64,000 nucleotides of DNA from an uncultured virus (IMG/VR IMGVR_UViG_3300044266_000359). Its lineage: Duplodnaviria > Heunggongvirae > Uroviricota > Caudoviricetes. Where the stretch lies: the IMG/VR virus record IMGVR_UViG_3300044266_000359. One strand, written 5' to 3'. Below the pieces are notes generated by a model. That model searched no databases, was not told the DNA's origin, and saw only the letters and a list, made by a program, of their open reading frames with translations. Of the stretch, positions 30,182 to 60,796 are shown piece by piece. Each line of letters opens with the position of its first letter. The stretch's first letter is position 1. The position numbers and the translations under genes are program-made.

Positions 30182-30213
30182 TTCTGAATAAATAATTCAA
30201 AGGTCCTTGGACG

Positions 30214-30462
30214 ATGCAAAAAAAGACTCGAAGTATTTTAGAAGAATTGGACTCCATGTATGTGGAGCGAGATCGCCGTCTAATAATTGAAAACAGAGCT
30301 GCCAGTGTTATTGCCAGTGCTGTGAGATTATTGGAGCAGATTGATGCTGAGTTCCCACCAGACCAGGCAGAGAATCTCACACGCAAATTGCTCAATGCCA
30401 TTCGCACTAGAGATTCAGGAAAATTCGCCAGATCTGTAAGGAGAACAAATGCAGATCTATGA
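30214..30462 (+). CDS. Hypothetical protein
   Basis: ORF after TAAATA. Confidence 0.7.
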   Translation: MQKKTRSILEELDSMYVERDRRLIIENRAASVIASAVRLLEQIDAEFPPDQAENLTRKLLNAIRTRDSGKFARSVRRTNADL

Positions 30463-31480
30463 AATCTTCCAAGCTAATGAAAACGTACTCAAAGGCGTTG
30501 CTAACAGTGTAAAAAGCGCAGTAAGTCGCACACCTGCTATTGCTGGCGCTGTGAACAGCGTAAAAAGTGTAGCAAGCCGTGCCCCTGCCATTGCTGGTGC
30601 AGTTGCTAGCGATATTGGCAGCAGAATACTAAGCCGCGCAGGCTTGCCCGGAGACGTTGGACTAGGTTCAAAAAATGCATTTGGTGACAAAGAAGCCCAA
30701 GCTGCTCGCACCGCTGAACCCATAATCAAAGCACAAGCAGACAACTTATTCAAACAGTGGGCTGCAAACAAAGATCGATCCAATCCTGCTGCTCTACAAC
30801 AATCACTGATCAGTGTGGTGCAAAATACACTGTTGCAAAGAAAACTAGGCCGTGATTATACCAACTTAGATAACTGGGTTGCACAAGACCCCCAAACCCA
30901 ACAACGTGCTGCCGGACTGGTTAAAAATATCACCTCAGGTATTGATACTATTTTGAAATCCGACCCGCAAGATACTGCCCAAGCTTGGGAAAATCTTGTG
31001 CGAGCAACTTCCCAGGCCATGTCACTAATGACATTCCATCCTAAGAATTACAACTATTCAGGTCAGGCCGCTGCACAAATGCCAGTGGTTACTACCACAG
31101 CACAAGGATACAAGATTGGCAACACTGCATTGAACTCAGCCAATCCTGCTCAGCAAACAATGATACAGTTAATCAAGAGTCAAGTTGCCCCAAATGGTGC
31201 ATTACCTAGAATCACAGTGACCCCACAAGGTTATATGTTAGGCTCGTTACCTTTGACACCTACCGATGCTACACACAAAAAATTAATTGACATTATCACC
31301 GGTGGCAAACCCAAAACAACAAAAGCCAAAACAAAAAAAGCTAAACCACAGCCTACAGCAAAACCAATTGCAGGTACAGAGATCAAAGGAGCCAAAGCTG
31401 GTGCACCGACTTCGGCAGAAGTTGCCAATCTTGAAAAACGTATACAACAGGCTCAGGCTGCCCAAGGACAAACAGCATGA
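30449..31480 (+). CDS. Putative virion protein with 17-aa tandem repeat
   Basis: MQIYE leader; NSVKSxxSRxPAIAGAV twice. Confidence 0.65.
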   Translation: MQIYEIFQANENVLKGVANSVKSAVSRTPAIAGAVNSVKSVASRAPAIAGAVASDIGSRILSRAGLPGDVGLGSKNAFGDKEAQAARTAEPIIKAQADNLFKQWAANKDRSNPAALQQSLISVVQNTLLQRKLGRDYTNLDNWVAQDPQTQQRAAGLVKNITSGIDTILKSDPQDTAQAWENLVRATSQAMSLMTFHPKNYNYSGQAAAQMPVVTTTAQGYKIGNTALNSANPAQQTMIQLIKSQVAPNGALPRITVTPQGYMLGSLPLTPTDATHKKLIDIITGGKPKTTKAKTKKAKPQPTAKPIAGTEIKGAKAGAPTSAEVANLEKRIQQAQAAQGQTA

Positions 31481-33372
31481 AATTACTAGAAGGTGGAAAC
31501 GTATTCAAAGACGCTGACGGACAGCCGTTGACCGGCCGTGTGAATCAAAGTGACATCCCTGCCACTGTGCAATGGATTGAGCAATTGACTGGCATTGAAT
31601 TTCCACGTGATCGTTGGCTAGGCAGCACAGGCAAGAACCCTACTTCGGGAGACCTAGATCTTGCTGTGGATGCCAACGAAGTCAACAAAGACCAACTGTT
31701 TGCCAAGCTGAGTGCATGGGCAGCAAGTCACAAACTCAACCCCAAGGAATGGATCAAAAAGGGCGGCGAAGTGCATTTGCGTACACCTATTGCCGGCCGT
31801 CCAGAATTGGGTTATGTGCAAACTGATTTTATGTTTTTTCCTAACTTAGATTGGGGACAGTTTTATTACAGCCAAGGCCCGGACTCTGCTTACAAAGGTA
31901 TGAACCGCGCTGTGCTCATGAGCAGCATAGCCAAACAACAGGGACTCAAAGTTGGCAGCAACGGTGTGTTCAGCAGAGCTACTAACGAACTGGTAAGTCA
32001 AGATCCCGATCAACTGGCTGACTGGATACTGGGCAAAGGTCGCACTCGCAAAGATCTTGCCACTGTGGAAAGCATTTATGCTGCACTAGCTCGTGATCCT
32101 GATCGCGATGTCAAGCTGGCAGATTTTCGTGAGTATTTGGCTCGCGAAGGCCTGCAAGAACCTACTGCTGTGAACGAAAACACTGAAGTAAACTTCTTGG
32201 CCAAACTGCGTGACCGCATTGTCAATCAAGGCATGCAACCCTTGATCGAAACTGAAACTGCCAACCCTTATAGCATATACGAAGCAGAAGAAACCAACGT
32301 TGGTGGCCGAGCCAAGGGCATTGAGCACTTGGAAGACCTGGTGTTCCGCAAAGGCCGACGTGGTGCCCAAGAAGCCTTGGCCATTGTGCAAGCTGCCAGC
32401 GAACAACCGGCCAGCACCACTGTAAAGTGGGACGGCAAGCCTGCTGTGGTATTTGGACGCAAGCCTGCCACAGGCGAGTTTGTGCTCACAGACGGTTCAG
32501 GATTTGAAGCTCGGGGCTATGATGGACTTGCTACCAGCCCCAAAATGATGGCACAAATTCAAAACACACGCTCCGGAGAACGGTCGGGCATTATCAAGCT
32601 GTATGCTGACTTGTGGCCTATACTGGAAGCTGCCACACCCACAAACTTCCGTGGTTATGTCAAGGGTGATTTGTTGTACATGGAAACACCTCCACTGGAA
32701 GCCGGCAACTATGTGTTCAAACCCAACACAGTGGAATATCGTATTCCAGCCAAATCAAGCCTGGGACAGCGTATTGGTAATTCTACCATTGGTATTGCCA
32801 TGCATTCCATGTATGCTGACCAAGGCGAAGCTAGACAGCCGCTCAGCAGAGTAAAATTCAACGAAGTACCTGGTCTGTTGTTGATCGAGCCCATTGCTGG
32901 CAAAGAAATGATGCCAGAGTCTAACTTGGTCAAACAAGTCAAAGCATTGATTCGCAGCAAAGGCGCTGCAATTGACACACTGTTTAATCCTGCAGAATTA
33001 CGAGCACAGCAAATCACAGACTTGGCCAAGCTGTGTGTGGATTACATCAACTATAGAATCCGCACAGGTAATTTTGATAACTTGTTGGCAGGGTTTGGAG
33101 ATTGGTTAAAAACCAAAGTCACTCCTAAAAAGTTTGGTAACATCATTGAGTACTTGCAAAGTCCACGTAGCAACACTGAAGCATTGGCTGCTGCATTTAC
33201 TATTTTTATACTGTTGCACGACTTAAAGCTAGACATACTGCGACAGCTGGATCTACGCGATCCTGGGCATGAAGGTTGGGTTATGGCCACACCCGCAGGC
33301 TATGCTAAGGCGGTCAATCGCTTTGATTTCACTGCCAGAAACCGCGCCCAAAATAACCCTCAACAGGCGTAA
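31477..33372 (+). CDS. Two-domain protein: Pol-beta/PolX-like nucleotidyltransferase + ATP-dependent ligase-like domain
   Basis: LGSTG...GDLDL, VQTDF; then KWDG, VKGDLL, HEGWV, KAVNR. Confidence 0.65.
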   Translation: MKLLEGGNVFKDADGQPLTGRVNQSDIPATVQWIEQLTGIEFPRDRWLGSTGKNPTSGDLDLAVDANEVNKDQLFAKLSAWAASHKLNPKEWIKKGGEVHLRTPIAGRPELGYVQTDFMFFPNLDWGQFYYSQGPDSAYKGMNRAVLMSSIAKQQGLKVGSNGVFSRATNELVSQDPDQLADWILGKGRTRKDLATVESIYAALARDPDRDVKLADFREYLAREGLQEPTAVNENTEVNFLAKLRDRIVNQGMQPLIETETANPYSIYEAEETNVGGRAKGIEHLEDLVFRKGRRGAQEALAIVQAASEQPASTTVKWDGKPAVVFGRKPATGEFVLTDGSGFEARGYDGLATSPKMMAQIQNTRSGERSGIIKLYADLWPILEAATPTNFRGYVKGDLLYMETPPLEAGNYVFKPNTVEYRIPAKSSLGQRIGNSTIGIAMHSMYADQGEARQPLSRVKFNEVPGLLLIEPIAGKEMMPESNLVKQVKALIRSKGAAIDTLFNPAELRAQQITDLAKLCVDYINYRIRTGNFDNLLAGFGDWLKTKVTPKKFGNIIEYLQSPRSNTEALAAAFTIFILLHDLKLDILRQLDLRDPGHEGWVMATPAGYAKAVNRFDFTARNRAQNNPQQA

Positions 33373-33435
33373 TTTTTGCCAGTTTCATAAATAAGTGTAG
33401 GGTCAAAGACCCAATTAACTTAAAAGGAAATTATC

Positions 33436-33840
33436 ATGGCTTATTATACCCCAGTAAATGGTGATGCACAACCAGTATTTGCAATCGACGTTCAAAACGG
33501 TCCTGTTGCTGCTTCTGCTTCTACCGCTGCTACACCAGTTAACCTAGCTGGTCCTAAGTTGGACTTCTTCCGCGTTGTTGCTAACACCACAGTGGTTAGC
33601 CAGCAAGGCGTGCAAGAATACGTTGCTAACGTTATTCAAGCTATCCAACAAACCGCTACAGTCGCTATGTACCAAGTTGACGGCACAGTGTTGAGCTTCG
33701 GTGTTTACCCAACCGGCGCTTTTGCTAACGCTTCAACCAACACATCAGCTGCCAGCTTCTTGGCTGCCGCCAACATTACCTACACAGGTTATCAGTTGGA
33801 TAGCGCCACAAGCATTGGTTTCAAACTAGCTGCTTCCTAA
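33436..33840 (+). CDS. Probable abundant virion protein
   Basis: TAAATA promoter, 5' hairpin, AAGGA RBS, own terminator, strong GCT/GTT codon bias. Confidence 0.65.
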   Translation: MAYYTPVNGDAQPVFAIDVQNGPVAASASTAATPVNLAGPKLDFFRVVANTTVVSQQGVQEYVANVIQAIQQTATVAMYQVDGTVLSFGVYPTGAFANASTNTSAASFLAAANITYTGYQLDSATSIGFKLAAS

Positions 33841-43258: not shown

Positions 43259-43431
43259 TAGCTAACGCACAAGATCTGCCAGAAAAGAAAGCCAGCGTAG
43301 AGGTATCGGGCATCAAAGTTGTTGTTGACAAAAACGATAACTGGGAAACTGTAGGAATGATACTCGTACTTGTATTAGGAGTATACGCAGGAATCAAAGT
43401 TATAAACAAAATTTTTAAGGAAACTAAATGA
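43255..43431 (+). CDS. 58-aa single-TM microprotein (not in ORF track)
   Basis: ATGA overlaps with both nrdA and aceA. Confidence 0.6.
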
Positions 43432-44636
43432 AAAAGCGTAATTACACACAGGAACAAGTTCGTAAGTTACAAGGTAGCGTACAAATTGAACACACACTGG
43501 CCAAACGTGGAGCATACAAACTTCGCGAGCTATTGGCCAATGAACCATACATCAACACCTTGGGTGCATACAATGGTCAAATGGCAGTACAACATGCCAA
43601 AGCTGGACTCAAAGCAATTTACTTGAGCGGTTGGCAAGTGGCAGGTGCAAACAATACCTCAAACCAAACCTATCCCGACCAGTCATTGTATCCAGTTGAC
43701 TCAGTACCTCGTGTGGTCAAAGGTATTAACAATGCTTTCCGTCGTGCTGATCAAATTGAAACACTGGAAGGCAATGTCACAACAGATTACTTCCTGCCTA
43801 TTGTTGCAGATGCCGAAGCAGGCTTTGGTGGTGCGCTAAACGCTTACGAACTGATGGCAGCAATGATCGAAGCTGGCGCTGCTGGTGTACACTTTGAAGA
43901 TCAATTGGCGTCGGAAAAGAAATGCGGCCACTTGGGCGGCAAAGTTCTTGTACCCACAAGTCAAATGATTCGCACACTGAATGCCGCACGACTGGCCGCG
44001 GACGTTGCAGGAGTTGACACAGTTATCATGGCCCGAACCGATGCAGAAAGTGCAACACTGATTACCAGCGACCACGACCCACTAGACAAGGATTTTATTA
44101 TCAATGAGCGCACTGAAGAAGGCTTTTATAAATTTAAGAATGGTATTGATGCTTGTATTAGCAGAGGTCTTGCTTATGCCCCTTACGCTGATCTCCTTTG
44201 GTTTGAAACTTCGACTCCTGATATTGCACAAGCTAAGAAGTTTGCTGATGCCATCCACGCTGAGTTTCCTGACCAAATGCTTGCTTACAATTGCAGTCCT
44301 AGTTTTAATTGGCGTAAGTTTTTGAGCGAAGACGAGTGCGAAACGTTCCAGCGTGAACTAGGCGAACTGGGCTACAAGTTCCAGTTCATTACACTTGCCG
44401 GCTTCCACTCAGTTAACCTTGCTACCTTTGAATTGGCCGAAGCGTACCGTCAACGTGGTATGGCTGGCTATTCAGAAATGCAACAACGTGAGTTTGCCGC
44501 TCAAGAGCGTGGATTTACCACTGTCAAGCATCAACGTGAAGTTGGCGTTGGTTACTTTGATGCTATCAGCGAAGCAGTGGGTGCCACAAGCACTGTGGCC
44601 AACCGAACAAGTACAGAATCGGATCAGTTTCATTGA
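43428..44636 (+). CDS. aceA: Isocitrate lyase
   Basis: [59 protein letters not shown]. Confidence 0.97.
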
Positions 44637-50176: not shown

Positions 50177-50370
50177 TGCTCAAGCAAGACATCCTCGACT
50201 CAAAAGGCAACGTGTACGCCACAGTTAAGTTTGATGGCACCATGTTGTCATTCTGCAACTTACAGCCATACAATCTGACCTTTGTCATGGATGCCCGAGT
50301 GGTCGAGCAACTGCTACCAATTTTACAAAGCATCAAGTTAATTCAGTGGACCGGAGCCGTAAATAAATGA
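50176..50370 (+). CDS. Hypothetical protein
   Basis: TAATG and ATGA couplings. Confidence 0.55.
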   Translation: MLKQDILDSKGNVYATVKFDGTMLSFCNLQPYNLTFVMDARVVEQLLPILQSIKLIQWTGAVNK

Positions 50371-51743
50371 TAGATTACACAGAAGATAGGTTTATTGGAA
50401 CTATGGCATCAGGTTGGATCCGCGACTTGGAAAGTTCTGACAGTCGTTTGCATAAAGAGGCAGTGATTGAAAAAGCTCTCATGGCTGCAAAGCTAGGATC
50501 AGCAGAAGCGCAGGCGTTCTTGTTCAACTGTTACCAAGCCTACAATCCGTACTATACATTCCATGTCAAACAAGTACCAGAAGTTAGCGACCACCGAGAC
50601 CGTCCCAATGCATGGCCTAAGTTTTGGGCACTGCTAGAAGCACTTCGTACTCGTTCAACTACAGGTAACTCAGCTCGTGAAGCCATTGTGGAATGTGCTG
50701 AACTGTTCGATGATGCTGAGTGGAATACAGTTTGTCGGCGTGTTATTATCAAGGACCTGCGTTGCGGCATCTCAGAAAAGACCTTAAACAAAATTCTTAA
50801 AAACACCGATTGGGAGATTCCGGTATTCAGTTGCCAGCTGGCACAAGATTCAACTGATCAACCCCGGAAGCTCACAGGCTTCAAACGCCTTGAGCCCAAG
50901 CTGGATGGGGTGCGTGTGTTAGCTGTGGTGCAAGGCATGAACGTGAGCTTGTTCAGCCGCAATGGCAAAGAGTTTGCCAACTTCCCCCAGATTGCCAAGG
51001 ATATTAACATCTACCGCAGAGCATTCCAAAACAATCTTGGCTCAGGTGGTCGTTTTGTGCTGGACGGCGAAGTAACTGGCGAGAGTTTCCAAAAGCTCAT
51101 GAAGCAAGCACATCGAAAAAGTGATGCCCAAACCGATGGTATGGTGTACAACATCTTTGACGTTGTTCCTTTGGACGACTTCCAGCGCGGTTATTGGAAC
51201 GCTCAACAATACAAGCGTTTTGAAATTCTAGATCGCGCCCGCGGCGCACTAGAAGATGCCACAGGCGGTCACAGCCTGAGAGTTGTAAGCGGACTGGAAG
51301 TAGATCTAGGCACAGCTGAGGGCCACGATATTATGAATCGCTATGCCCAAGATTGTGTGGCAGAAGGCTACGAAGGCATCATGATCAAAAGCATGGATGC
51401 TCCGTATGTGTGCAAACGAGCAGACTACTGGATGAAATGGAAGCCTACTATTTCAGTAGATTTGACCATTGTGGGTTTTGAAGAAGGTACCGGTCGTAAC
51501 GAAAACCGACTTGGTGCTATAATTTGTGAAGGAGTTGACAATGATCGTAACATACGAGTTAATGTTGGTAGCGGTTTTAGTGATAGCGATCGTGATGAGT
51601 ATTGGTCCGGAAGGGATAGCCTGCTTGGGCACTTGGTTGAAGTCCAAGCTGACGCAGTTACGCAAAACCAAGACGGATCATACAGTTTGAGGTTCCCCCG
51701 ATTCCTACGTTTCCGTGATTTTGAAGCAGGCGAAAAGTTGTGA
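50367..51743 (+). CDS. ATP-dependent DNA ligase (T4 gp30-like)
   Basis: EPKLDGVR, SRNGK, LDGEV, FDVV, EGIMIK, KWK, SLRFPRF. Confidence 0.95.
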   Translation: MIDYTEDRFIGTMASGWIRDLESSDSRLHKEAVIEKALMAAKLGSAEAQAFLFNCYQAYNPYYTFHVKQVPEVSDHRDRPNAWPKFWALLEALRTRSTTGNSAREAIVECAELFDDAEWNTVCRRVIIKDLRCGISEKTLNKILKNTDWEIPVFSCQLAQDSTDQPRKLTGFKRLEPKLDGVRVLAVVQGMNVSLFSRNGKEFANFPQIAKDINIYRRAFQNNLGSGGRFVLDGEVTGESFQKLMKQAHRKSDAQTDGMVYNIFDVVPLDDFQRGYWNAQQYKRFEILDRARGALEDATGGHSLRVVSGLEVDLGTAEGHDIMNRYAQDCVAEGYEGIMIKSMDAPYVCKRADYWMKWKPTISVDLTIVGFEEGTGRNENRLGAIICEGVDNDRNIRVNVGSGFSDSDRDEYWSGRDSLLGHLVEVQADAVTQNQDGSYSLRFPRFLRFRDFEAGEKL

Positions 51744-52957: not shown

Positions 52958-54394
52958 ATGTTTCTCTCATGGTTAATGATGGGCGTGGCACTGAGTCTCA
53001 GTGTTATCGCCGCTTTTTATAGTATAGCAGGTTTGGCTGCTATTTTTGCCGCGGCGGTGGTTCCTATTGTGGTAATGGGAACAATATTAGAAGTCGCCAA
53101 GCTCACTGTCACAGTTTGGTTACACGAGTACTGGCCACGGTGCCGATTCCTTATGAAGGCATACCTGGTACCTGCGGTGGCATTGCTTGCTTTTATTACC
53201 AGTATGGGTATATTTGGATTTCTAAGCAAAGCACACAGTGACCAGGGCATGGTGTCAGGTGACGTGCAAGCCAAGATTGCCATTTACGATGAAAAAATTC
53301 AAACCGAACGGGAGAACATTGATGCAAATCGCAAGGCGCTTAAACAACTTGATGAGGCAGTGGACCAAGTTATGGCACGCTCAACAGATGAAAAAGGGGC
53401 CGATAAGGCCGTGGCAATACGGCGAGCCCAGCAAAAAGATCGCGCTCGTTTACTTGAAGAAATTAGCAAGAGCCAATTGCGGATTACCGCACTCAACGAA
53501 GAACGAGCTCCAATTGCGGCGGAAGTACGAAAAGTGGAGGCCGAAGTGGGCCCTATCAAGTATATCGCCGCCTTGGTGTATGGGGATAACACCGATGCAA
53601 ACATTTTAGAACGGGCAGTGCGTTGGGTCATAATTATTCTAGTAATTGTATTTGACCCATTGGCAATTATGATGCTGTTGGCTGCAACCGAAAGCTTCAA
53701 GTGGGAGAAAGAGCCGCCTGTGGCAGAAACTGTAGTTGATGATGACAAGATTCGAGAAACTGCCAAAGAGCAAGAGCCCGAAATACCAGCGGAGCCTGTG
53801 CCCGAAGTTGAAAAGTCTTGGCAAGAAAAGTATCCATATCTCACTAAACCTTTTGTGCATTTCAGTAATACCAAACCGGTAGTCTATTCGGGCAATCCTG
53901 CAGAGTTTCAACAACCTTGGCCGGAAGAGAAAAAACAAGAGTTGGTCAAGGTAATGAAGGATATTTTCCCGTCGGACGATTGGTTAGACGGCGAAGAGCA
54001 TGGTTCAGATGAAGAAAAGCAAGCCATAAGAGAATGGAAAGCGGCTAATCCTGAACTCACAGTAAAAGCACAGCGAGAACTGCTGGCACGTGGTGAAATT
54101 ACCGAACTACCTTGGGCAAGAAAACCCAATTCAACTTTTGGATTTGTGTTTCCTTGGAGCCCAGAAAAAGGCGACACATTTATCAAAACAGATGTGGTGC
54201 CCAATGCAATGTACAAGTTTAACGGAACTCAATGGATGGCCGTTGACAAATCTGTGTTAGACAGTTATACTCATGATACTGCATACATTGATTATCTTAT
54301 CTCCAAAATATCATCAGGTGAATATGATCCTGAGCTATTGTCTGAAGACTTGCGTGATCAAGTAGCTGAACGTATCAAACAAACTGACGCATGA
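52958..54394 (+). CDS. Multi-pass membrane/coiled-coil protein
   Basis: Three N-terminal TM segments, GIFGFLSKAH, coiled coil, EVGPIKY, VFDPLA. Confidence 0.75.
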   Translation: MFLSWLMMGVALSLSVIAAFYSIAGLAAIFAAAVVPIVVMGTILEVAKLTVTVWLHEYWPRCRFLMKAYLVPAVALLAFITSMGIFGFLSKAHSDQGMVSGDVQAKIAIYDEKIQTERENIDANRKALKQLDEAVDQVMARSTDEKGADKAVAIRRAQQKDRARLLEEISKSQLRITALNEERAPIAAEVRKVEAEVGPIKYIAALVYGDNTDANILERAVRWVIIILVIVFDPLAIMMLLAATESFKWEKEPPVAETVVDDDKIRETAKEQEPEIPAEPVPEVEKSWQEKYPYLTKPFVHFSNTKPVVYSGNPAEFQQPWPEEKKQELVKVMKDIFPSDDWLDGEEHGSDEEKQAIREWKAANPELTVKAQRELLARGEITELPWARKPNSTFGFVFPWSPEKGDTFIKTDVVPNAMYKFNGTQWMAVDKSVLDSYTHDTAYIDYLISKISSGEYDPELLSEDLRDQVAERIKQTDA

Positions 54395-55626
54395 AAACAA
54401 CTGAAAATTTAGATAACTGTAGTTTTTGTGGAAAACACAAAGATCAAGTAGTTAAGCTCATTGTGGGCGCCGAAGTTGCAATTTGCAACGAGTGTGTGGA
54501 CTTGTGCCAGACTTTGCTAGAAGATGCACCTGTTGCCAAAGCTGACAAAACGCCCGGTGCGCTTGATCCTAGAGAAATCAAACGTCACCTTGACGAGTAT
54601 GTGATTGGGCAAGACCAAGCAAAAATTGTTCTCAGTGTAGCAGTTACCAACCACTACAAACGAATCAACAACAAAGAAAAACAAACCGAAGTCGAAAAAG
54701 CCAACATCCTCATGCTTGGTCCCACAGGATCAGGAAAAACACTGCTGGCCAGAAGCGTGGCCAGATATTTGGATGTGCCGTTTGTTATTGCAGACGCCAC
54801 CAGTTTGACTGAAGCAGGATATGTGGGTGATGATGTTGAGAGTTTGATCAGTCGGCTGTACGCAGCTTCTGGATTCGACGTTGAAAAAACACAGCGTGGT
54901 ATTGTGTTTGTGGACGAAATTGACAAAATCAGCAGAAAAAGCGAAAGCACAAGTATTACCCGAGACGTGTCGGGCGAAGGCGTGCAACAGGCCCTGCTCA
55001 AGTTGGTTGAAGGCACCAAGTGCAGAATTCAACCAACTGGTGGTCGTAAACATCCAGGCGGGGACATGATCGAAATAGATACCACTGACATTCTGTTCAT
55101 AGCAGGTGGTGCTTTTGTGGGCCTGGATAACATTGTTAAAAACCGTATCAAAGGCACCAGCATTGGATTCCAAGCTGAAGTCAACCAAGATACTCCTGGC
55201 AAATTAGACATGGTCACGCCCGACGATTTGGTACGCTTTGGGTTGATTCCTGAGTTTGTGGGCAGATTCCCCAGTTGGGTAGCATTGCAAGAGTTAACGT
55301 TGGAAGATCTCATTTCCATTCTAACTGAAGTTAAAAACTGCTATGTTGATCAGTATCAATGGTTATTTGACCAAGATCAAGTTGCACTGACATTCGAAAC
55401 TGACGCACTCAAACGCATAGCTGAAAATACCATCAAAAACAAAACTGGCGCCCGTGGGCTGCACAGTGAACTGGAGCGTGTGTTATTGCCGCACATGTTT
55501 AACTTGCCACGCTATCGAGACAGCGAAATCAACAGCCTTACAATCACTCAAGACCTGGTAAATAATCCTGTAGAACTAAAGGGATTACATGAACAAGTTG
55601 CGAGGAAGGTCAGTACTGGTCACTGA
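54391..55626 (+). CDS. clpX: ATP-dependent Clp protease ATPase ClpX
   Basis: CSFCGK Zn domain, [25 protein letters not shown] loop, TGARGL. Confidence 0.96.
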
Positions 55627-55813
55627 CGACAACATAGAAAAAGCTCTGCGTAAGTTCAAAAAGAAAATCCAAAACTCGGACATTCTTAACGAGCTACGCA
55701 AAAGAGAGCATTACGTTAAACCTACCACCAAGCGCAAACTCAAACGTAGCGCGGCTAAAAATCGCTGGCGTAAAAAGCTGGACGATCAAGCATTGCCCAA
55801 GAAGCTATACTAA
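55589..55813 (+). CDS. rpsU: Ribosomal protein bS21
   Basis: IEKALRKFKKK...ELRKREHYVKPT..RK. Confidence 0.92.
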   Translation: MNKLRGRSVLVTDDNIEKALRKFKKKIQNSDILNELRKREHYVKPTTKRKLKRSAAKNRWRKKLDDQALPKKLY

Positions 55814-56052
55814 TGTACGTGGAGTTCAAGCTACCCGAATCTATTGCTGGTGCGTCATTATTGTTGCTTCGTCGTAGCATACTTGATTGGTCCGAAAAAT
55901 ACCAAATTCCTTACACTGAAAAAACCATAAAATACACTTACCGCGTGTGTTTTGATAAAGACGAGTCTTATAGTTTTTTTGCAATGACCTATCCACAGAC
56001 CCGGCACTTTCTCCAATATCGCATTGTGTCTGACCTAAATAATAAAATATAA
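55813..56052 (+). CDS. Hypothetical protein
   Basis: TAATG coupling. Confidence 0.6.
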   Translation: MYVEFKLPESIAGASLLLLRRSILDWSEKYQIPYTEKTIKYTYRVCFDKDESYSFFAMTYPQTRHFLQYRIVSDLNNKI

Positions 56053-56079
56053 TTTGATTTCGTGTATAATAAATAACAA

Positions 56080-56137
56080 TGTAGCGCCGATGGTCGGGCT
56101 ACAAAATTAATCTTGCTTTTCGAAGGAGAACACAATG
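56080..56137 (+). promoter_or_regulatory. Structured dnaK leader, ROSE-like RNA thermometer candidate
   Basis: Hairpin containing GCCGATGGTCGGGC, then CTTGCT opposite SD AAGGAG. Confidence 0.65.
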
Positions 56138-58021
56138 AGCAAAGTAATCGGTATCGATCTGGGTACCACAAATTCATGCGTAGCCGTGGTTGAAAACGGC
56201 AATTCCCGAGTAATTGAAAACAGCGAAGGTGCTAGAACAACTCCTAGTGTTGTTGCTTACACCAGCGACGATGTGCTGGTCGGTGCAAGCGCCAAGCGTC
56301 AAGCAATTACCAATCCCAAAAACACCATTTACGCAGCCAAGCGATTGATCGGACGCAAGTTCCGCGAAGATGCAGTGCAGAAGGACATCAACTTGATGCC
56401 GTATAGCATTGTGGAAAATGACAATGGTGATGCTTGGGTTCAAGCTGGCGATCGCCGACTGGCACCTCCACAAATCTCTGCAGAAGTTCTGCGTAAAATG
56501 AAAAAGACAGCAGAAGACTATCTTGGCACAGAAGTCACACAAGCTGTTATCACTGTCCCTGCTTACTTCAACGACAGCCAACGTCAAGCTACCAAAGATG
56601 CTGGACGTATCGCTGGACTAGAAGTATTGCGTATTATCAACGAGCCAACTGCGGCTGCACTAGCATACGGCGTTGACAAAGCCGATAAAAAGGATCGCAA
56701 GATTGCTGTGTACGACTTGGGCGGCGGCACGTTTGACGTAAGCATCATTGAAATCGCCAACATTGACAATGAAAAGCAAATCGAAGTATTGAGCACCAAC
56801 GGAGACACCTTCCTGGGCGGTGAAGACTTTGACCAGCGCATCATGGACTTCTTGGTCGACGAATTCAAGCGGGATACTGCTGTGGACTTGACCCGAGACG
56901 TACTGGCCTTGCAACGCTTGAAAGAAGCTGCTGAAAAAGCCAAGATTGAACTGTCAAGCAGCACTGCTACAGACGTCAACTTGCCTTATGTCACTGCTGA
57001 TGCTAGTGGTCCCAAGCACATGAACATCAAGCTCACTCGTGCCAAACTAGAGAGTTTGGTGGACGAGTTGATCCAACGCAGTATTGAACCTTGCCGCATT
57101 GCAATGAAAGATGCCGGTGTCACTGCTGATGAAATTGATGAAGTTATTCTTGTTGGTGGCCAAACTCGCATGCCCCGAGTACAAGAAGCTGTGGAAAAAC
57201 TGTTTGGCAAAGCACCGCGCCGGGATGTTAACCCTGACGAAGCAGTGGCTGCAGGCGCTGCTATTCAAGGAAGTGTGTTGGCCGGTGACCGCAAAGACGT
57301 GTTGCTGTTGGATGTTACACCGTTGAGCTTGGGCATTGAAACCATGGGTGGTGTGTTTACTAAAATCATCCAAAAGAACACAACCATTCCTACCAAGGGC
57401 ACACAAACATTCAGTACTGCTGAAGACAATCAGCCTGCTGTGACCATCAAGGTTGGACAAGGTGAGCGTGAGCTGTTCAAGTACAACAAAGAACTTGGTT
57501 TGTTTAATCTAGACGGTATTGCTCCTGCACCACGTGGCATGCCGCAAATTGAAGTTACCTTTGACATTGACGCCAATGGCATTATGCATATTTCGGCCAA
57601 AGACAAAGGCACCGGCAAAGAAAACAAAATCACTATCAAGAGTGACTCAGGCTTGAAAGAGGATGAAATTCAACGCATGGTTCGTGAAGCTGAAGACAAT
57701 GCCGAAGCTGACAAGAAACAAGTTGAATTGATTCAAGCTCGCAACACCGCAGAAGGTACGTTGCATGGGTTCCGCAAGGACTTTGATGCCTACAAGGATC
57801 AGGTCACAGAAGAAGAACGCAACCGAGCTGAACAAGCACTTCAAGATCTTGACACTGCTATTGGCGGTGATGACGTTGAGGAAATCAACGCAAAAACAAC
57901 AGAATTGTACCAAGCTATCGGTCCTATCACCGGTAAAAAGTACGAAGCCGAGCAAAAGGCCAAAGCGGAATCCGAGAAAAAGGATGATGATGTGGTCGAT
58001 GCCGAAGTCAAGGCTGCTTGA
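56135..58021 (+). CDS. dnaK: Chaperone DnaK (Hsp70)
   Basis: [39 protein letters not shown]. Confidence 0.98.
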
Positions 58022-58036
58022 TTTCGATAAGTAAAA

Positions 58037-58101
58037 ATACAGGTGCCGATGGTCGGGCCCGTATAACAAAGTCAACTTGCTTTATAAGGAGAAATGACAT
58101 G
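58037..58101 (+). promoter_or_regulatory. Structured small-HSP leader, ROSE-like RNA thermometer candidate
   Basis: Same 14-mer hairpin core and CTTGCT...AAGGAG. Confidence 0.65.
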
Positions 58102-58542
58102 ACTAAGACTTTAACACTACGCACATTCGATATCCCACAAATGCACAAGTTTGGGATTGGATTCGACAACATGTTTGATGAACTCATGCGTGTTACATCA
58201 CAACAACAAACCAATTATCCTCCACACAATGTGATCAAAACAGGTGAAAACACCTTGATCATTGAAGTGGCTGTGGCTGGCTTTGCCGAAGGCGAAATTG
58301 ACATTCAGGTGGAGAAAAACTTGTTGACAATTCGTGGCGAGCAGGCACGTGAAACAGATGCCAGTTGGGAATTTTTGCATCGCGGAATTTCCAGCCGTGA
58401 TTTTAGCCAAGCTTTTACTTTGGCCGATCACGTGGAAGTAAAAAGCGCCAGCATTACCAACGGCATTTTGAGTGTGTTTTTGGAACGCAAGATTCCAGAA
58501 GAAGCCAAGCCAAAGAGTATTGCTATTACCTACAATAAGTAA
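58099..58542 (+). CDS. Small heat-shock protein (IbpA/Hsp20)
   Basis: IGFD, NYPPHN, AVAGF, HRGIS.R.F, NGIL, PEEAKP. Confidence 0.94.
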   Translation: MTKTLTLRTFDIPQMHKFGIGFDNMFDELMRVTSQQQTNYPPHNVIKTGENTLIIEVAVAGFAEGEIDIQVEKNLLTIRGEQARETDASWEFLHRGISSRDFSQAFTLADHVEVKSASITNGILSVFLERKIPEEAKPKSIAITYNK

Positions 58543-58556
58543 TATAATGTAAATAC

Positions 58557-58580
58557 AGCAGTGGGAATGGTCCCACTGCT
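58557..58580 (+). other. Perfect 10-bp hairpin right after TAAATA, upstream of clpS
   Basis: AGCAGTGGGA-ATGG-TCCCACTGCT. Confidence 0.7.
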
Positions 58581-58597
58581 ACAACAAGGATAATAAA

Positions 58598-58912
58598 ATG
58601 GCACAGTCAGATACACGTACCAAAATCAAGCCTAACGAAGCTGTCAAAGAGCCACCGATGTTCAAGGTAGTTTATATCAATGACAATCAGACCAGCATGG
58701 AATTTGTGATTTCCAGCTTGGTTGATTATTTTGATTACCGCATTGAAACTGCTGAACAAATCACCATTGACATTCACGAAACCGGCTCTGCTGTGGTAGC
58801 TGTGTTGCCTTATGAAATTGCCGAGCAAAAAGGCATCGAAGTTACTCTCAATGCACGAGCACAAAGCTATCCGCTACAAATCAAACTTGAACCCGATGGC
58901 GTGGGTCAATAA
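58598..58912 (+). CDS. clpS: Clp adaptor ClpS
   Basis: PPMFKVVYIND..T.MEFV, IHETG.AVV, YEIAEQK, YPL. Confidence 0.9.
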   Translation: MAQSDTRTKIKPNEAVKEPPMFKVVYINDNQTSMEFVISSLVDYFDYRIETAEQITIDIHETGSAVVAVLPYEIAEQKGIEVTLNARAQSYPLQIKLEPDGVGQ

Positions 58913-59697
58913 TCAATTGTAATGCGCTTGGGGTGATACACCCAAGTTGACCACGGCGAACCACTGCGACCACGACAGTTATTCACATAACGAATATTGT
59001 CGTGCGTCTGGTCTACGCTGCCATGGTAGTGACCAAAGCACCAGGTGTGTATTTTCTTTTCAGAATCTGCTGCCAATACATGTTGCATATAACGATTGCC
59101 CATGGTATTGAATTTCAACGATCCCACTAGATTGACGTCGTGGTTGATCAGCACAGGGTTGGGCACAGTGTGAGTGGCAACCACAATCTTTTTAACGTCA
59201 ATATGTGTTTGCAAGCGTTTGATTGAACCGATCATGTAGCTGGCATCGTTTGTACTCATCTTACGTATGTTTTCTATTTCGTTTAGGCCATAGAATTCTT
59301 TTTCTGCGTACCATTGGGCAGATTGATCGGGGTCTGTAACACCATCAAAGTCAAACCCCCACCAGCCGTTGGTTCCAATAATGGCCACACCGTCTACCAC
59401 TACCACATTGTCTTGTAGATAAACAACATTGTGTACCGCAGTAACACGATCCACCAAGTCACGATAGCTGTGTCCTAGATCTTGCATGTGGTTGGAGTGT
59501 TCGTCGTTGCCGTCGATATAAAACACAGCTTGATAGCATTTGCCCAAGTGTGTGAGTGCTTCGATCAGCCGGTCTCGGTCCTTGGCAACGTCTCCTACTA
59601 CCAAACAGTGGGCGCTGGTGCTGCGGTCAGTCCAGTCAAACGTTTCTTGCCAAGTATCTATGTGTAAATCAGAAATTAAATCAAAAGTAAATTGCAT
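58906..59697 (-). CDS. Calcineurin-like metallophosphoesterase
   Basis: SDLH, GD, GNDEH, THTVP, FGHYH. Confidence 0.85.
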   Translation of the reverse strand: MQFTFDLISDLHIDTWQETFDWTDRSTSAHCLVVGDVAKDRDRLIEALTHLGKCYQAVFYIDGNDEHSNHMQDLGHSYRDLVDRVTAVHNVVYLQDNVVVVDGVAIIGTNGWWGFDFDGVTDPDQSAQWYAEKEFYGLNEIENIRKMSTNDASYMIGSIKRLQTHIDVKKIVVATHTVPNPVLINHDVNLVGSLKFNTMGNRYMQHVLAADSEKKIHTWCFGHYHGSVDQTHDNIRYVNNCRGRSGSPWSTWVYHPKRITIDY

Positions 59698-59723
59698 CAT
59701 ACATATTTAGAAGGATTTTTATC

Positions 59724-60089
59724 ATGCATATAATTTTTGGCGATGCCATAAAACACATACCCAATAGTTATACAGTATTGGAGTTAGATACCATACGTAT
59801 AGAACCTGACAACCAAGAATTCAAGACCTACTGTGTGATTGAAAAAATTCCTTTGGCTGAGTTTCCTGTTGCAGAAATAAATCAAAAAGTTCATGCAGAT
59901 TTGATACAACACTACAAGCAGCAGGACTGGCAATTTTGCGAAGATGCAATCTCTGTACTGTACGGAAAATGGGACGGAGAAATAGATAGTTTTTATGACG
60001 ACTTGAGCCGACGAATCAACGAGTATAAAAACGTCAAGTTAGAACCCAGCTGGGATGGCACACTGGTGCGTTCTATAAATACTCAATGA
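59724..60089 (+). CDS. Hypothetical protein resembling the C-terminal tail of class III adenylate cyclases
   Basis: ELDTIRI, Y.QQDW, FY..L..RI, WDG pattern. Confidence 0.5.
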   Translation: MHIIFGDAIKHIPNSYTVLELDTIRIEPDNQEFKTYCVIEKIPLAEFPVAEINQKVHADLIQHYKQQDWQFCEDAISVLYGKWDGEIDSFYDDLSRRINEYKNVKLEPSWDGTLVRSINTQ

Positions 60090-60796
60090 CAGAATTAATT
60101 GCAACCCTAGTAATGACGCACATTACCATTGCTTGTGTTACCTTGTATTTGCATCGTAGCCAAGCTCATCGCAGCGTGACCTTTCACCCAGCGATAGCAC
60201 ATTTCATGCGTTTTTGGTTGTGGCTCACAACAGGCATGGTTACCAAACAGTGGGTGGCCATACATCGCAAACACCATAGATACAGTGATCGATCAGGCGA
60301 CCCGCACAGTCCATTGGTGTATGGTATCCGCAGAGTTTTCTTTCAAGGAGCAGGTTTATATCATGAAGCAAGCAAAGATCGTGTTATGGTTGACGCATAC
60401 GGTGCTGGTACTCCTGCTGATTGGATGGAGCGCAACGTATACAGTGCTCACTCCAGACTTGGCATTGGCCTTCTCTTTTTGTTCAACGTTGCCGTTTTCG
60501 GTTGGGTCGGCGCCTTAATATGGTTGGTACAAATGGCGTGGATTCCGTTTTGGGCAGCGGGAGTGATTAACGGCCTAGCACATTGGTGGGGATATAGAAA
60601 TGGTGAAACTAGAGACAACAGTAGAAATATTAGTCCCATTGGTATTATCATCGGTGGTGAATGCTTACATAATAATCACCATCTTGACCCTGCTAGTGCC
60701 AAACTGAGCCGACGTTGGTTTGAGTTTGATATTGGTTGGATGTATATTGTTATTTTGCGTTCAGCGGGGTTGGCAAAGGTTACCCAGGCAAAGTAA
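60086..60796 (+). CDS. Acyl-CoA (delta-9-type) fatty acid desaturase
   Basis: His boxes HRSQAH, HRKHH, HNNHH; GDPHSP; WFEFDIGW. Confidence 0.92.
   Translation: MTELIATLVMTHITIACVTLYLHRSQAHRSVTFHPAIAHFMRFWLWLTTGMVTKQWVAIHRKHHRYSDRSGDPHSPLVYGIRRVFFQGAGLYHEASKDRVMVDAYGAGTPADWMERNVYSAHSRLGIGLLFLFNVAVFGWVGALIWLVQMAWIPFWAAGVINGLAHWWGYRNGETRDNSRNISPIGIIIGGECLHNNHHLDPASAKLSRRWFEFDIGWMYIVILRSAGLAKVTQAK

Follow-up and report, generated by a model that had tools for sequence, protein, structure and literature searches.

A predicted family X polymerase-like and ligase-fold polyprotein with prohead protease-type sites in a giant freshwater phage

PolX of African swine fever virus (ASFV; PDB 5hr9), a minimal enzyme of palm and thumb with three aspartates, works with the ASFV ligase and has neither the 8-kDa lyase nor the fingers subdomain; the virus is eukaryotic, the two enzymes are encoded by separate genes and the ligase is a DNA ligase. 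In PgVPolX of Phaeocystis globosa virus 16T, a PolX-like domain is fused N-terminally to a ligase-superfamily domain, and fill-and-seal has been shown biochemically; the protein is described as having 1093 amino acids (aa), a full Pol-beta core, deoxyribose phosphate (dRP) lyase activity and an NAD+-dependent DNA ligase (PMC5537341). In jumbo phages, a Pol-beta-superfamily enzyme, RlaP, is reported to be linked to RNA ligase-fold enzymes (PMC7824862, PMC12776372), and adds one or two nucleoside monophosphates (NMP) to damaged RNA 3' ends before ligation (PMC12776372). Finally, the gp21-processed T4 proteins IPI-III and Alt and the polyvalent virion proteins carry short leaders cut after glutamate, and are described as enzymes co-delivered with DNA and as multi-domain cargo that includes ADP-ribosyltransferases (PMC9958956, PMC5694885, PMC9503650). 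Here, we analyze a gene that recalls all of these, located in a 64,000-nucleotide stretch of DNA from an uncultured virus of the Caudoviricetes (IMG/VR IMGVR_UViG_3300044266_000359; the whole stretch is called the window below), whose product combines a PolX-like N-domain with a ligase-fold C-domain of the family DUF6267.

By analogy, the window protein may work like PgVPolX, like ASFV PolX with its ligase, or like RlaP with an RNA ligase, though we assign it to none of these groups. Unlike PgVPolX, it has palm and thumb only, no OB domain, no match to the NAD+-ligase model, and protease-type sites between its domains. It differs from ASFV PolX (14% identity) in being a phage protein from fused genes without invariant arginines of the R183/R283 type (register by eye), and from the RlaP system in having a PolX thumb and a DUF6267 partner, not Rnl1 or Rnl2. 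In comparison with the T4 head-packaged proteins, as far as the cited reports describe them, it has internal cut sites between shuffled enzyme domains and its cargo is of PolX fold and ligase fold. Since neither an OB domain nor KxDGxR was found and no such profiles matched, we do not classify it as an ATP-dependent DNA ligase, an RNA ligase or RlaP. The term DUF6267 was found in no paper of the literature searched, and no paper describing a PolX-like/ligase-fold fusion was found by title or abstract start; most subscription papers lie outside that search.

Our best reading, which we give about an even chance, is that the protein is made late, packaged in the head and cleaved to yield two enzymes, which lengthen and rejoin the ends of broken nucleic acid. 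The gene would be expressed late and its product built into the prohead, where a protease of the T4 gp21 type would cut after E5 and after the linker glutamates, releasing residues 6-234 as a PolX-like enzyme of 25 kDa and residues 270-631 as a ligase-fold enzyme of 40 kDa. Both would exit the head with the genome and act ahead of phage gene expression. With D59, D61, D117 and two metals, the PolX-like enzyme would lengthen a 3'-OH end by one or a few nucleotides, and the ligase-fold enzyme would nucleotidylate itself at K317, pass the NMP to a 5'-phosphate and seal the break. The pair would thereby mend the ends of nucleic acid that the host has cut or that has suffered damage inside the particle. 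We infer the activities, the substrate and the coupling of the two enzymes, and a part in anti-defence (rescue from an anticodon nuclease or from restriction) may be conjectured. The gene and its parts are given below; residue counts refer to 50 short members for the N-domain and, for the C-domain, to 45 rows (53 aligned minus eight close homologues).

31477..33372, + strand: fused polyprotein gene, 631 aa; leader, PolX-like domain, linker and ligase-fold DUF6267 domain
31477..31491, + strand: leader MKLLE, with a predicted prohead protease cut after E5 and mature N-terminus Gly6, from [LIVF]xE statistics
31492..32163, + strand: minimal family X polymerase-like domain (palm and thumb), residues 6-229; AlphaFold 2 (AF2) model with predicted local distance difference test score (pLDDT) 95.5, and VIA matches
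31651..31659, + strand: catalytic D59-x-D61, conserved in 50/50
31825..31827, + strand: third catalytic aspartate, D117 (in VQTDF), conserved in 50/50
32164..32319, + strand: linker with three [VLI]xE sites (E234, E258, E269), kept in 120/120 close homologues
32320..33342, + strand: DUF6267 domain with the fold of ligase/capping-type covalent nucleotidyltransferases (Pfam, AF2, VIA)
32425..32436, + strand: motif I, KWDG, with K317 as the predicted nucleotidylated lysine; K, D and G in 45/45
32662..32676, + strand: motif III-like KGDLL (D398); D in 38/45, E in 3/45
33271..33282, + strand: motif IV, EGWV (E599); E in 43/45
33307..33321, + strand: motif V, KAVNR (K611, R615); K in 45/45, R in 42/45

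The genome is that of a large T4-related phage, the window carrying terminase, primase, helicase, a RecA-like protein and ribonucleotide reductase, and the sequencing runs in which it is best represented are freshwater metagenomes; the source is an uncultured giant freshwater phage. Both domains lie in a single open reading frame (ORF) at 76 of 80 viral loci, the other four running off a contig edge, and one contig of the DNA run X5, a run not marked as a possible source of the window, crosses the linker (31217-32540) with zero differences from the window. The fusion is thus no assembly artefact. Homologues of the polyprotein made up 4,064 of the 8,000 scored candidates at E ≤0.001, and the best 120, spread over many samples, are 76-100% identical. 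The fusion was found in none of the cultured phages among 50,697 records, where no match covers 80% of the query. The full protein had no match in a PDB sequence search or, like either domain alone, in NCBIfam, and the ESM Atlas returned unnamed viral clusters first, with NTP_transf_2 (0.93) and RNA_ligase (0.77) as leads only. A cellular origin was considered and rejected: all seven genome_contigs matches are contigs of metagenome-assembled genomes (MAGs), and five of the seven, from bacterial MAGs, keep the gene order of the window phage around the homologue and are probably phage DNA binned with cells.

By its predicted model, the N-domain is a member of the Pol-beta nucleotidyltransferase superfamily with a family X fold. 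The motif layout is G49-S50-x8-D59-L-D61, followed by a thumb-like stretch from N143; D59, D61 and D117 are invariant in the 50 aligned diverse homologues, G49 is kept in 49 and position 144 is R or K in 49. When the model was compared with 48,161 chains by VIA, the top 10 were all family X (Z 10.4-7.6, 148-181 residues aligned), including Pol beta (Z 10.4, root-mean-square deviation [rmsd] 3.5, 164 aligned) and ASFV PolX (Z 9.2, rmsd 3.3, 148 aligned), whereas MenT1, CD-NTases, TUTases and antibiotic nucleotidyltransferases reached Z ≤6.6 and mostly matched over the palm only. On this ranking, the domain is described as a minimal palm and thumb; the 8-kDa lyase and fingers subdomains are not present, as the domain begins 43 residues before G49 and the model has no such helices. 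All Foldseek rows shown were family X too (best E 9.8e-5), and the Pol-beta/PolX assignment of the original prediction, including the thumb, is therefore upheld by the fold comparison it had proposed. By sequence, the window N-domain matched no Pfam family at E ≤1, and its profile retrieved nothing among PDB sequences (best E 0.8). Four of the 50 members matched PF14791 weakly (best E 0.009) and three AbiEii (best E 5.5e-4); PF10127 (RlaP) was absent among the 25 families listed, of 41, for these members. A search with residues 1-233 against 1.84 billion representatives gave 616 matches at E ≤0.001; the counts out of 150 given below refer to the 150 of these that were listed.

The C-domain was assigned by Pfam to DUF6267 (PF19782; residues 282-622, E 5.4e-31, 108.7 bits versus a cut-off of 27, positions 4-371 of 376). 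This identity adds to the original prediction, which had described covalent nucleotidyltransferase-like motifs without an OB domain. The motifs it quoted were all located where it had placed them (in this domain, KWDG from 317, KGDLL from 396, EGWV from 599 and KAVNR from 611), and key catalytic residues are conserved across diverse homologues, K317, D319, G320, K611, K584, E286 and D287 being invariant in the 45. In the model (pLDDT 92.8), motifs III and IV are separated by a large helical insert, and no OB fold is present: the protein ends 20 residues past K611, with one helix after motif V. In the VIA comparison, the top 32 rows were all ligase/capping-fold chains, and this uniform ranking, together with the motifs, places the C-domain as modelled in the ligase/capping nucleotidyltransferase superfamily. 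Five RNA ligases lead (Z 8.4-7.1; for the best, rmsd 4.0 and 182 aligned), ahead of the best DNA ligase (Z 6.9); on the model, this fold does not decide between an RNA and a DNA substrate. Nothing was found by Foldseek at E ≤0.001, though its list consists mostly of ligases. The best neighbours, the nick-sealing RNA ligase 5cot (which we take to be of the Rnl5 family), fungal Trl1, T4 Rnl2 and REL1, share motifs I, III, IV and V and the missing OB domain. The C-domain differs from them in its low identity (8-12%), an N-terminal HxED helix, the insert of ~110 residues with the invariant K584, an Asp in place of Glu in motif III, and the single helix after motif V. Seven proteins have a KxDG motif in a region that the DUF6267 profile does not match, possibly marking further distant ligase-fold families.

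ATP-dependent DNA ligases are characterized by a C-terminal OB domain and the KxDGxR motif. In the window family, KWDG is followed by K/M/I/S-P-A in 120/120 close homologues, with no arginine after KxDG, and the C-domain matched neither PF01068 nor PF14743, nor did it match the RNA-ligase profiles PF09414, Rnl1, Rnl2, Rnl3 and Rnl5. The distant homologues in the phages Atu_ph07, RsoM2USA and Phosso gave sub-threshold matches to PF09414 (E 0.002-0.085), and Atu_ph07 gp66 weakly matched the RNA_ligase profile over positions 3-169 of 171 (E 9.8e-4). A canonical ligase is encoded separately, as had been pointed out before:

50367..51743, + strand: canonical ATP-dependent DNA ligase (PF01068, E 3.6e-16; OB domain PF14743; phrog_114, E 1.4e-89)

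These results bear on the possibility that DUF6267 is a stripped-down DNA ligase which serves in replication or recombination and makes up for the ligase that cyanomyoviruses lack; in the window phage, it would then be a redundant or specialised second DNA ligase, with the PolX-like domain as an intracellular gap-filling helper. Cyanomyoviruses are indeed reported without a g30 ligase (PMC2984593), and no PF01068 match was found in P-SSM4 or HTVC008M. The cyanophage DUF6267 protein, T4-GC71, is reported in 16/16 cyanophages (PMC3037559); in P-SSM4 and HTVC008M, the DUF6267 gene follows that of the gp41 helicase with few genes in between, as in the window; structurally, DNA ligases come within ~1.5 Z of the best RNA ligase. 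Nevertheless, the missing OB domain and arginine, the lead of five RNA ligases, the RNA_ligase match of gp66, the canonical ligase already present in the window phage and in PA5oct, and a late-promoter-like site and cut sites that point to the virion (see below) make this explanation improbable.

T4 gp21 cuts at sites of the form L/I-x-E. For T4, phiKZ and SPN3US, prohead protease cleavage is reported C-terminal to the glutamate of a short motif (PMC5694885). In the window protein, such sites are LLE (3-5), VNE (232-234), LIE (256-258) and IYE (267-269); E234, E258 and E269 are kept in 120/120 close homologues and E5 in 119/120, the middle residue of the VNE site being variable. Among the 150 representatives, [LIVF]xE stands directly before the PolX-like domain in 125 of 140 locatable starts, and nine of the 140 have Met at that same place, which gives the same mature end; internal copies of the domain begin right after [LIVF]xE in 37/37 cases. 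For the other domain, [LIVFM]xE is found in the 18 residues before the HxED motif in 50/51 diverse homologues versus 175/867 interior windows, a control that is imperfect because the sequences share ancestry and Glu may be common in linkers. The boundary motifs recur in both domain orders and in many fusions. The protease-type sites proposed earlier for leader and linker thus hold at the domain boundaries, and cleavage of the fusion at these glutamates is, judging from the sequence patterns, likely. A gp21-type prohead protease gene is present in PA5oct and is listed for Atu_ph07. Between the E234 and E258 sites lies a near-invariant amphipathic helix (residues 240-253; 32194-32235) that could be an internal capsid-targeting peptide. 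A similar, aromatic-led helix occurs C-terminal to the PolX-like domain in several homologues that start with Met (three of six show the pattern of a C-terminal targeting helix). Similar short Glu-ending leaders open the small or low-complexity ORFs at 30449, 35036, 36007, 1586 and 3241 of the window, which suggests further head-packaged proteins.

Stand-alone PolX-like homologues occur in 14 named phage records, at the same place downstream of the helicase. In the two with published proteomes, the protein was detected in virions by mass spectrometry (MS): EST35_0231 of PA5oct with 6 peptides and 57% coverage (PMC7318152), and gp65 of Atu_ph07 with 10 peptides and 36.8% coverage (PMC6102473, Table S5). 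As neither has an N-terminal leader, the leader is not required for packaging. For the ligase-like domain, the 10 abundant virion bands reported for RsoM2USA include ORF438 (PMC8504454), a protein with a leader ending in LTE and a match to the C-domain profile (E 2e-5 in a set of 9 proteins). Its stated mass of 51.69 kDa disagrees with the 62.4 kDa of the record, although the mass of ORF383 does fit; the listing of ORF438 is a doubtful positive. Being listed in RsoM2USA and unlisted in the other virion proteomes, the ligase-like domain seems to be packaged in a lineage-dependent way, and the fusion would enforce its packaging in the window phage. Of the virion delivery put forward by the original prediction, the part concerning the PolX-like domain stands through PA5oct and Atu_ph07; the part concerning the ligase-like domain has the doubtful RsoM2USA listing and homologues that are unlisted. 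Taken together, packaging of the fusion in the head is probable.

The pair of PolX-like and ligase-like domains is frequent and old, and not obligate. Both occur in one chain in 53 of the 150 representatives, the commonest fusion. Each of the 14 named records that carry the PolX-like gene has, in addition, a match to the KxDG neighbour from Phosso; the KxDG gene adjoins the PolX-like gene in Atu_ph07 and Phosso and lies three genes upstream in PA5oct, and the encoded proteins share motifs I, IV and V and a PNxxxY motif with DUF6267. When the two domains were modelled as a complex, the score was 0.00, which gives no support and was not used either way. In Phosso, gene 181 is a second PolX-like copy (E 1.2e-21) among small genes, ~5 kb from a tRNA-Leu gene and with no annotated ligase near it. 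For gp66 of Atu_ph07, the match to the Phosso protein begins 48 nucleotides (nt) upstream of the annotated start, which may therefore be placed too late.

Another frequent companion of DUF6267 is a "cytidyltransferase" with an HxGH motif. The two domains of the window protein could be independent cargo enzymes on one delivery chain, the partner of the ligase-fold enzyme being the HxGH protein and not the PolX-like domain, for example in making and using an activated nucleotide (recycling of an NAD+-like cofactor, or capping or activation of RNA ends). In P-SSM4 and HTVC008M, DUF6267 adjoins or lies near the cytidyltransferase, phrog_455 spans both, and the cytidyltransferase neighbouring T4-GC71 is reported in S-SM1 virions with 25 peptides (PMC3037559). 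CTP_transf_like is found by Pfam in 14 of 64 scanned polyproteins, with NMN adenylyltransferases as its weak best matches; the HxGH module lies elsewhere in two of five relative contigs, and many unrelated domains likewise accompany the PolX-like domain. However, the HxGH domain was found by phmmer in 11 of the 150 representatives versus 53 for the ligase-like domain, the PolX-like/ligase-like pair is adjacent or close in three cultured lineages, and no HxGH gene of the cytidyltransferase kind adjoins the window gene. We regard independent cargo as rather unlikely, and continue to prefer two coupled enzymes.

Six polyproteins punctuated by LxE also carry ART-PolyVal, Tad3, NT5C, Amidoligase_2 and DUF5661 domains, and such polyproteins appear, from their sequences, to be a shuffled set of head-packaged cargo. 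ART-PolyVal, Tad3 and NT5C are typical early effectors. It is conceivable that one or both domains of the window protein are not repair enzymes but effectors which, once injected, would nucleotidylate proteins of the host, tRNA ends or signalling nucleotides in take-over or anti-defence. Such a role would agree with the virion location reported for the PA5oct and Atu_ph07 homologues, with co-passengers that include an ADP-ribosyltransferase and Tad3, with the weak AbiEii matches, and with polymerase-typical arginines that are not invariant (register by eye). It is opposed by the PolX thumb of the model, with Z scores for family X above those of the other nucleotidyltransferases compared, and by close homologues that stay 76-100% identical in many samples, unlike the variable gene next to it (at 30449; see below). 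We therefore consider this explanation unlikely, and well behind the end-repair reading.

The region upstream of the gene contains the following features.

30188..30194, + strand: T4-type late-promoter-like ATAAATA, heading three overlapping ORFs (30214, 30449, 31477)
30214..30462, + strand: virion structural protein of 82 aa (phrog_11854, E 6e-14), a conserved upstream neighbour
30449..31480, + strand: variable 343-aa protein with an MQIYE leader, overlapping the polyprotein start codon

The late promoter of S-PM2 is given as NATAAATA (PMC2984593). The 11 ATAAATA sites in the window are not above chance (7.5±2.7 expected), but on the plus strand 10 of 10 precede an ORF start and fall no more than 140 nt from it, in zones that make up 14% of the window. 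Scans for sigma-70 promoters and terminators in the window stayed at chance level. The RNA run covers 33408-33828 alone, outside the polyprotein gene, and says nothing on its expression. The gene for the 82-aa structural protein is found in 72 of the 80 loci, and also near the homologues in PA5oct and Phosso. The gene at 30449 is found in just 25 of the 80, with similar leaders at this position in related loci, and its product matched no family in the PHROG or Pfam scans.

Several observations weigh against the end-repair reading. The window ORFs that were scanned yielded no prohead protease gene, and neither did relative contigs of 24-62% completeness. Using the Pol beta numbering R183 and R283, which we assume to place the polymerase-typical arginines, invariant arginines were not seen at these positions (register by eye): in the 50 members, position 53 is K in 25, R in 10 and another residue in 15, and position 149 is S, A, N or Y, so template-directed DNA synthesis is not to be assumed. 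The fold match of the C-domain is middling (Z 8.4; Foldseek best E 3.5e-3, TM-score ~0.2), and the window clade has G340 (113/120 close homologues) where 41/45 diverse homologues have K, a replacement that may alter phosphate binding. The profile link of the KxDG neighbours to DUF6267 is weak: PA5oct reaches P 77%, the Atu_ph07 and Phosso neighbours are singly not significant, and the three together give P 23% and E 9e-4. As for their packaging, gp66 of Atu_ph07 is the sole unlisted protein of gp53-gp69 in the published virion list (PMC6102473), the PA5oct ligase-like protein EST35_0228 carries no MS note in the available part of its report (PMC7318152), and T4-GC71 has no proteomic flag in what is given of three cyanophage virion proteomes (PMC3037559). 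Furthermore, 326 of the 350 records matching the DUF6267-like domain are Synechococcus, Cyanophage or Prochlorococcus records, none of them among the 14 with the N-domain, and a profile search for a PolX-like partner in P-SSM4, HTVC008M and RsoM2USA found none. Of the fill-and-seal proposal in the original prediction, the two superfamilies are retained; the coupling is weakened by DUF6267 proteins without a PolX-like partner and by the gaps in the virion lists.

If the two enzymes do act together, the substrate is split about evenly between RNA, in a tRNA-type repair, and the incoming DNA. For RNA speak, on models and by analogy, the missing OB domain, the RNA ligases at the head of the structural ranking, the weak PF09414 matches, the example of RlaP and the fact that a DNA ligase is encoded separately; DNA is favoured by the PolX thumb, by the example of PgVPolX and by the ligase gap of cyanomyoviruses. 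No tRNA genes were found in the window.

Further genes were noted elsewhere in the window and its relatives. Many related loci have insertions of variable genes, cysteine-rich or enzyme-like, in the stretch from the helicase to the 82-aa gene. A phage isocitrate lyase (43428-44636; Pfam ICL, E 3.6e-104) lies between two ribonucleotide reductase genes, and positions 54391-60796, encoding an ATPase (ClpX-like by PHROG), Hsp70, Hsp20 and a fatty-acid desaturase, form a chaperone and host-physiology block.

With these assignments, DUF6267, a core gene of marine T4-like cyanophages, gains a predicted biochemical identity with named residues, as does a protein of the PA5oct and Atu_ph07 virions that had no annotation. 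The T4-like cyanophages that carry DUF6267 are reported without a DNA ligase (PMC2984593). More tentatively, and less probably than not in all its parts, DUF6267 would be a new branch of polynucleotide ligases which, with a PolX-fold (often also an HxGH) enzyme, would form a protease-released, injected end-healing kit that giant phages of aquatic habitats use in very large numbers; RNA may be the substrate of the PolX-fold enzyme, or its action may be template-independent, and it may depend on the glycine that cleavage leaves at its N-terminus, and DUF6267 would be the missing ligase-type enzyme of the cyanomyovirus core genome. The OB-less ligase and the 25-kDa PolX-fold enzyme are possible reagents, and the [LIVF]xE punctuation offers a means of parsing unannotated giant-phage polyproteins into effector domains. 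If fill-and-seal is true, phages inject a ready-made repair kit that would counter host nucleases before transcription.

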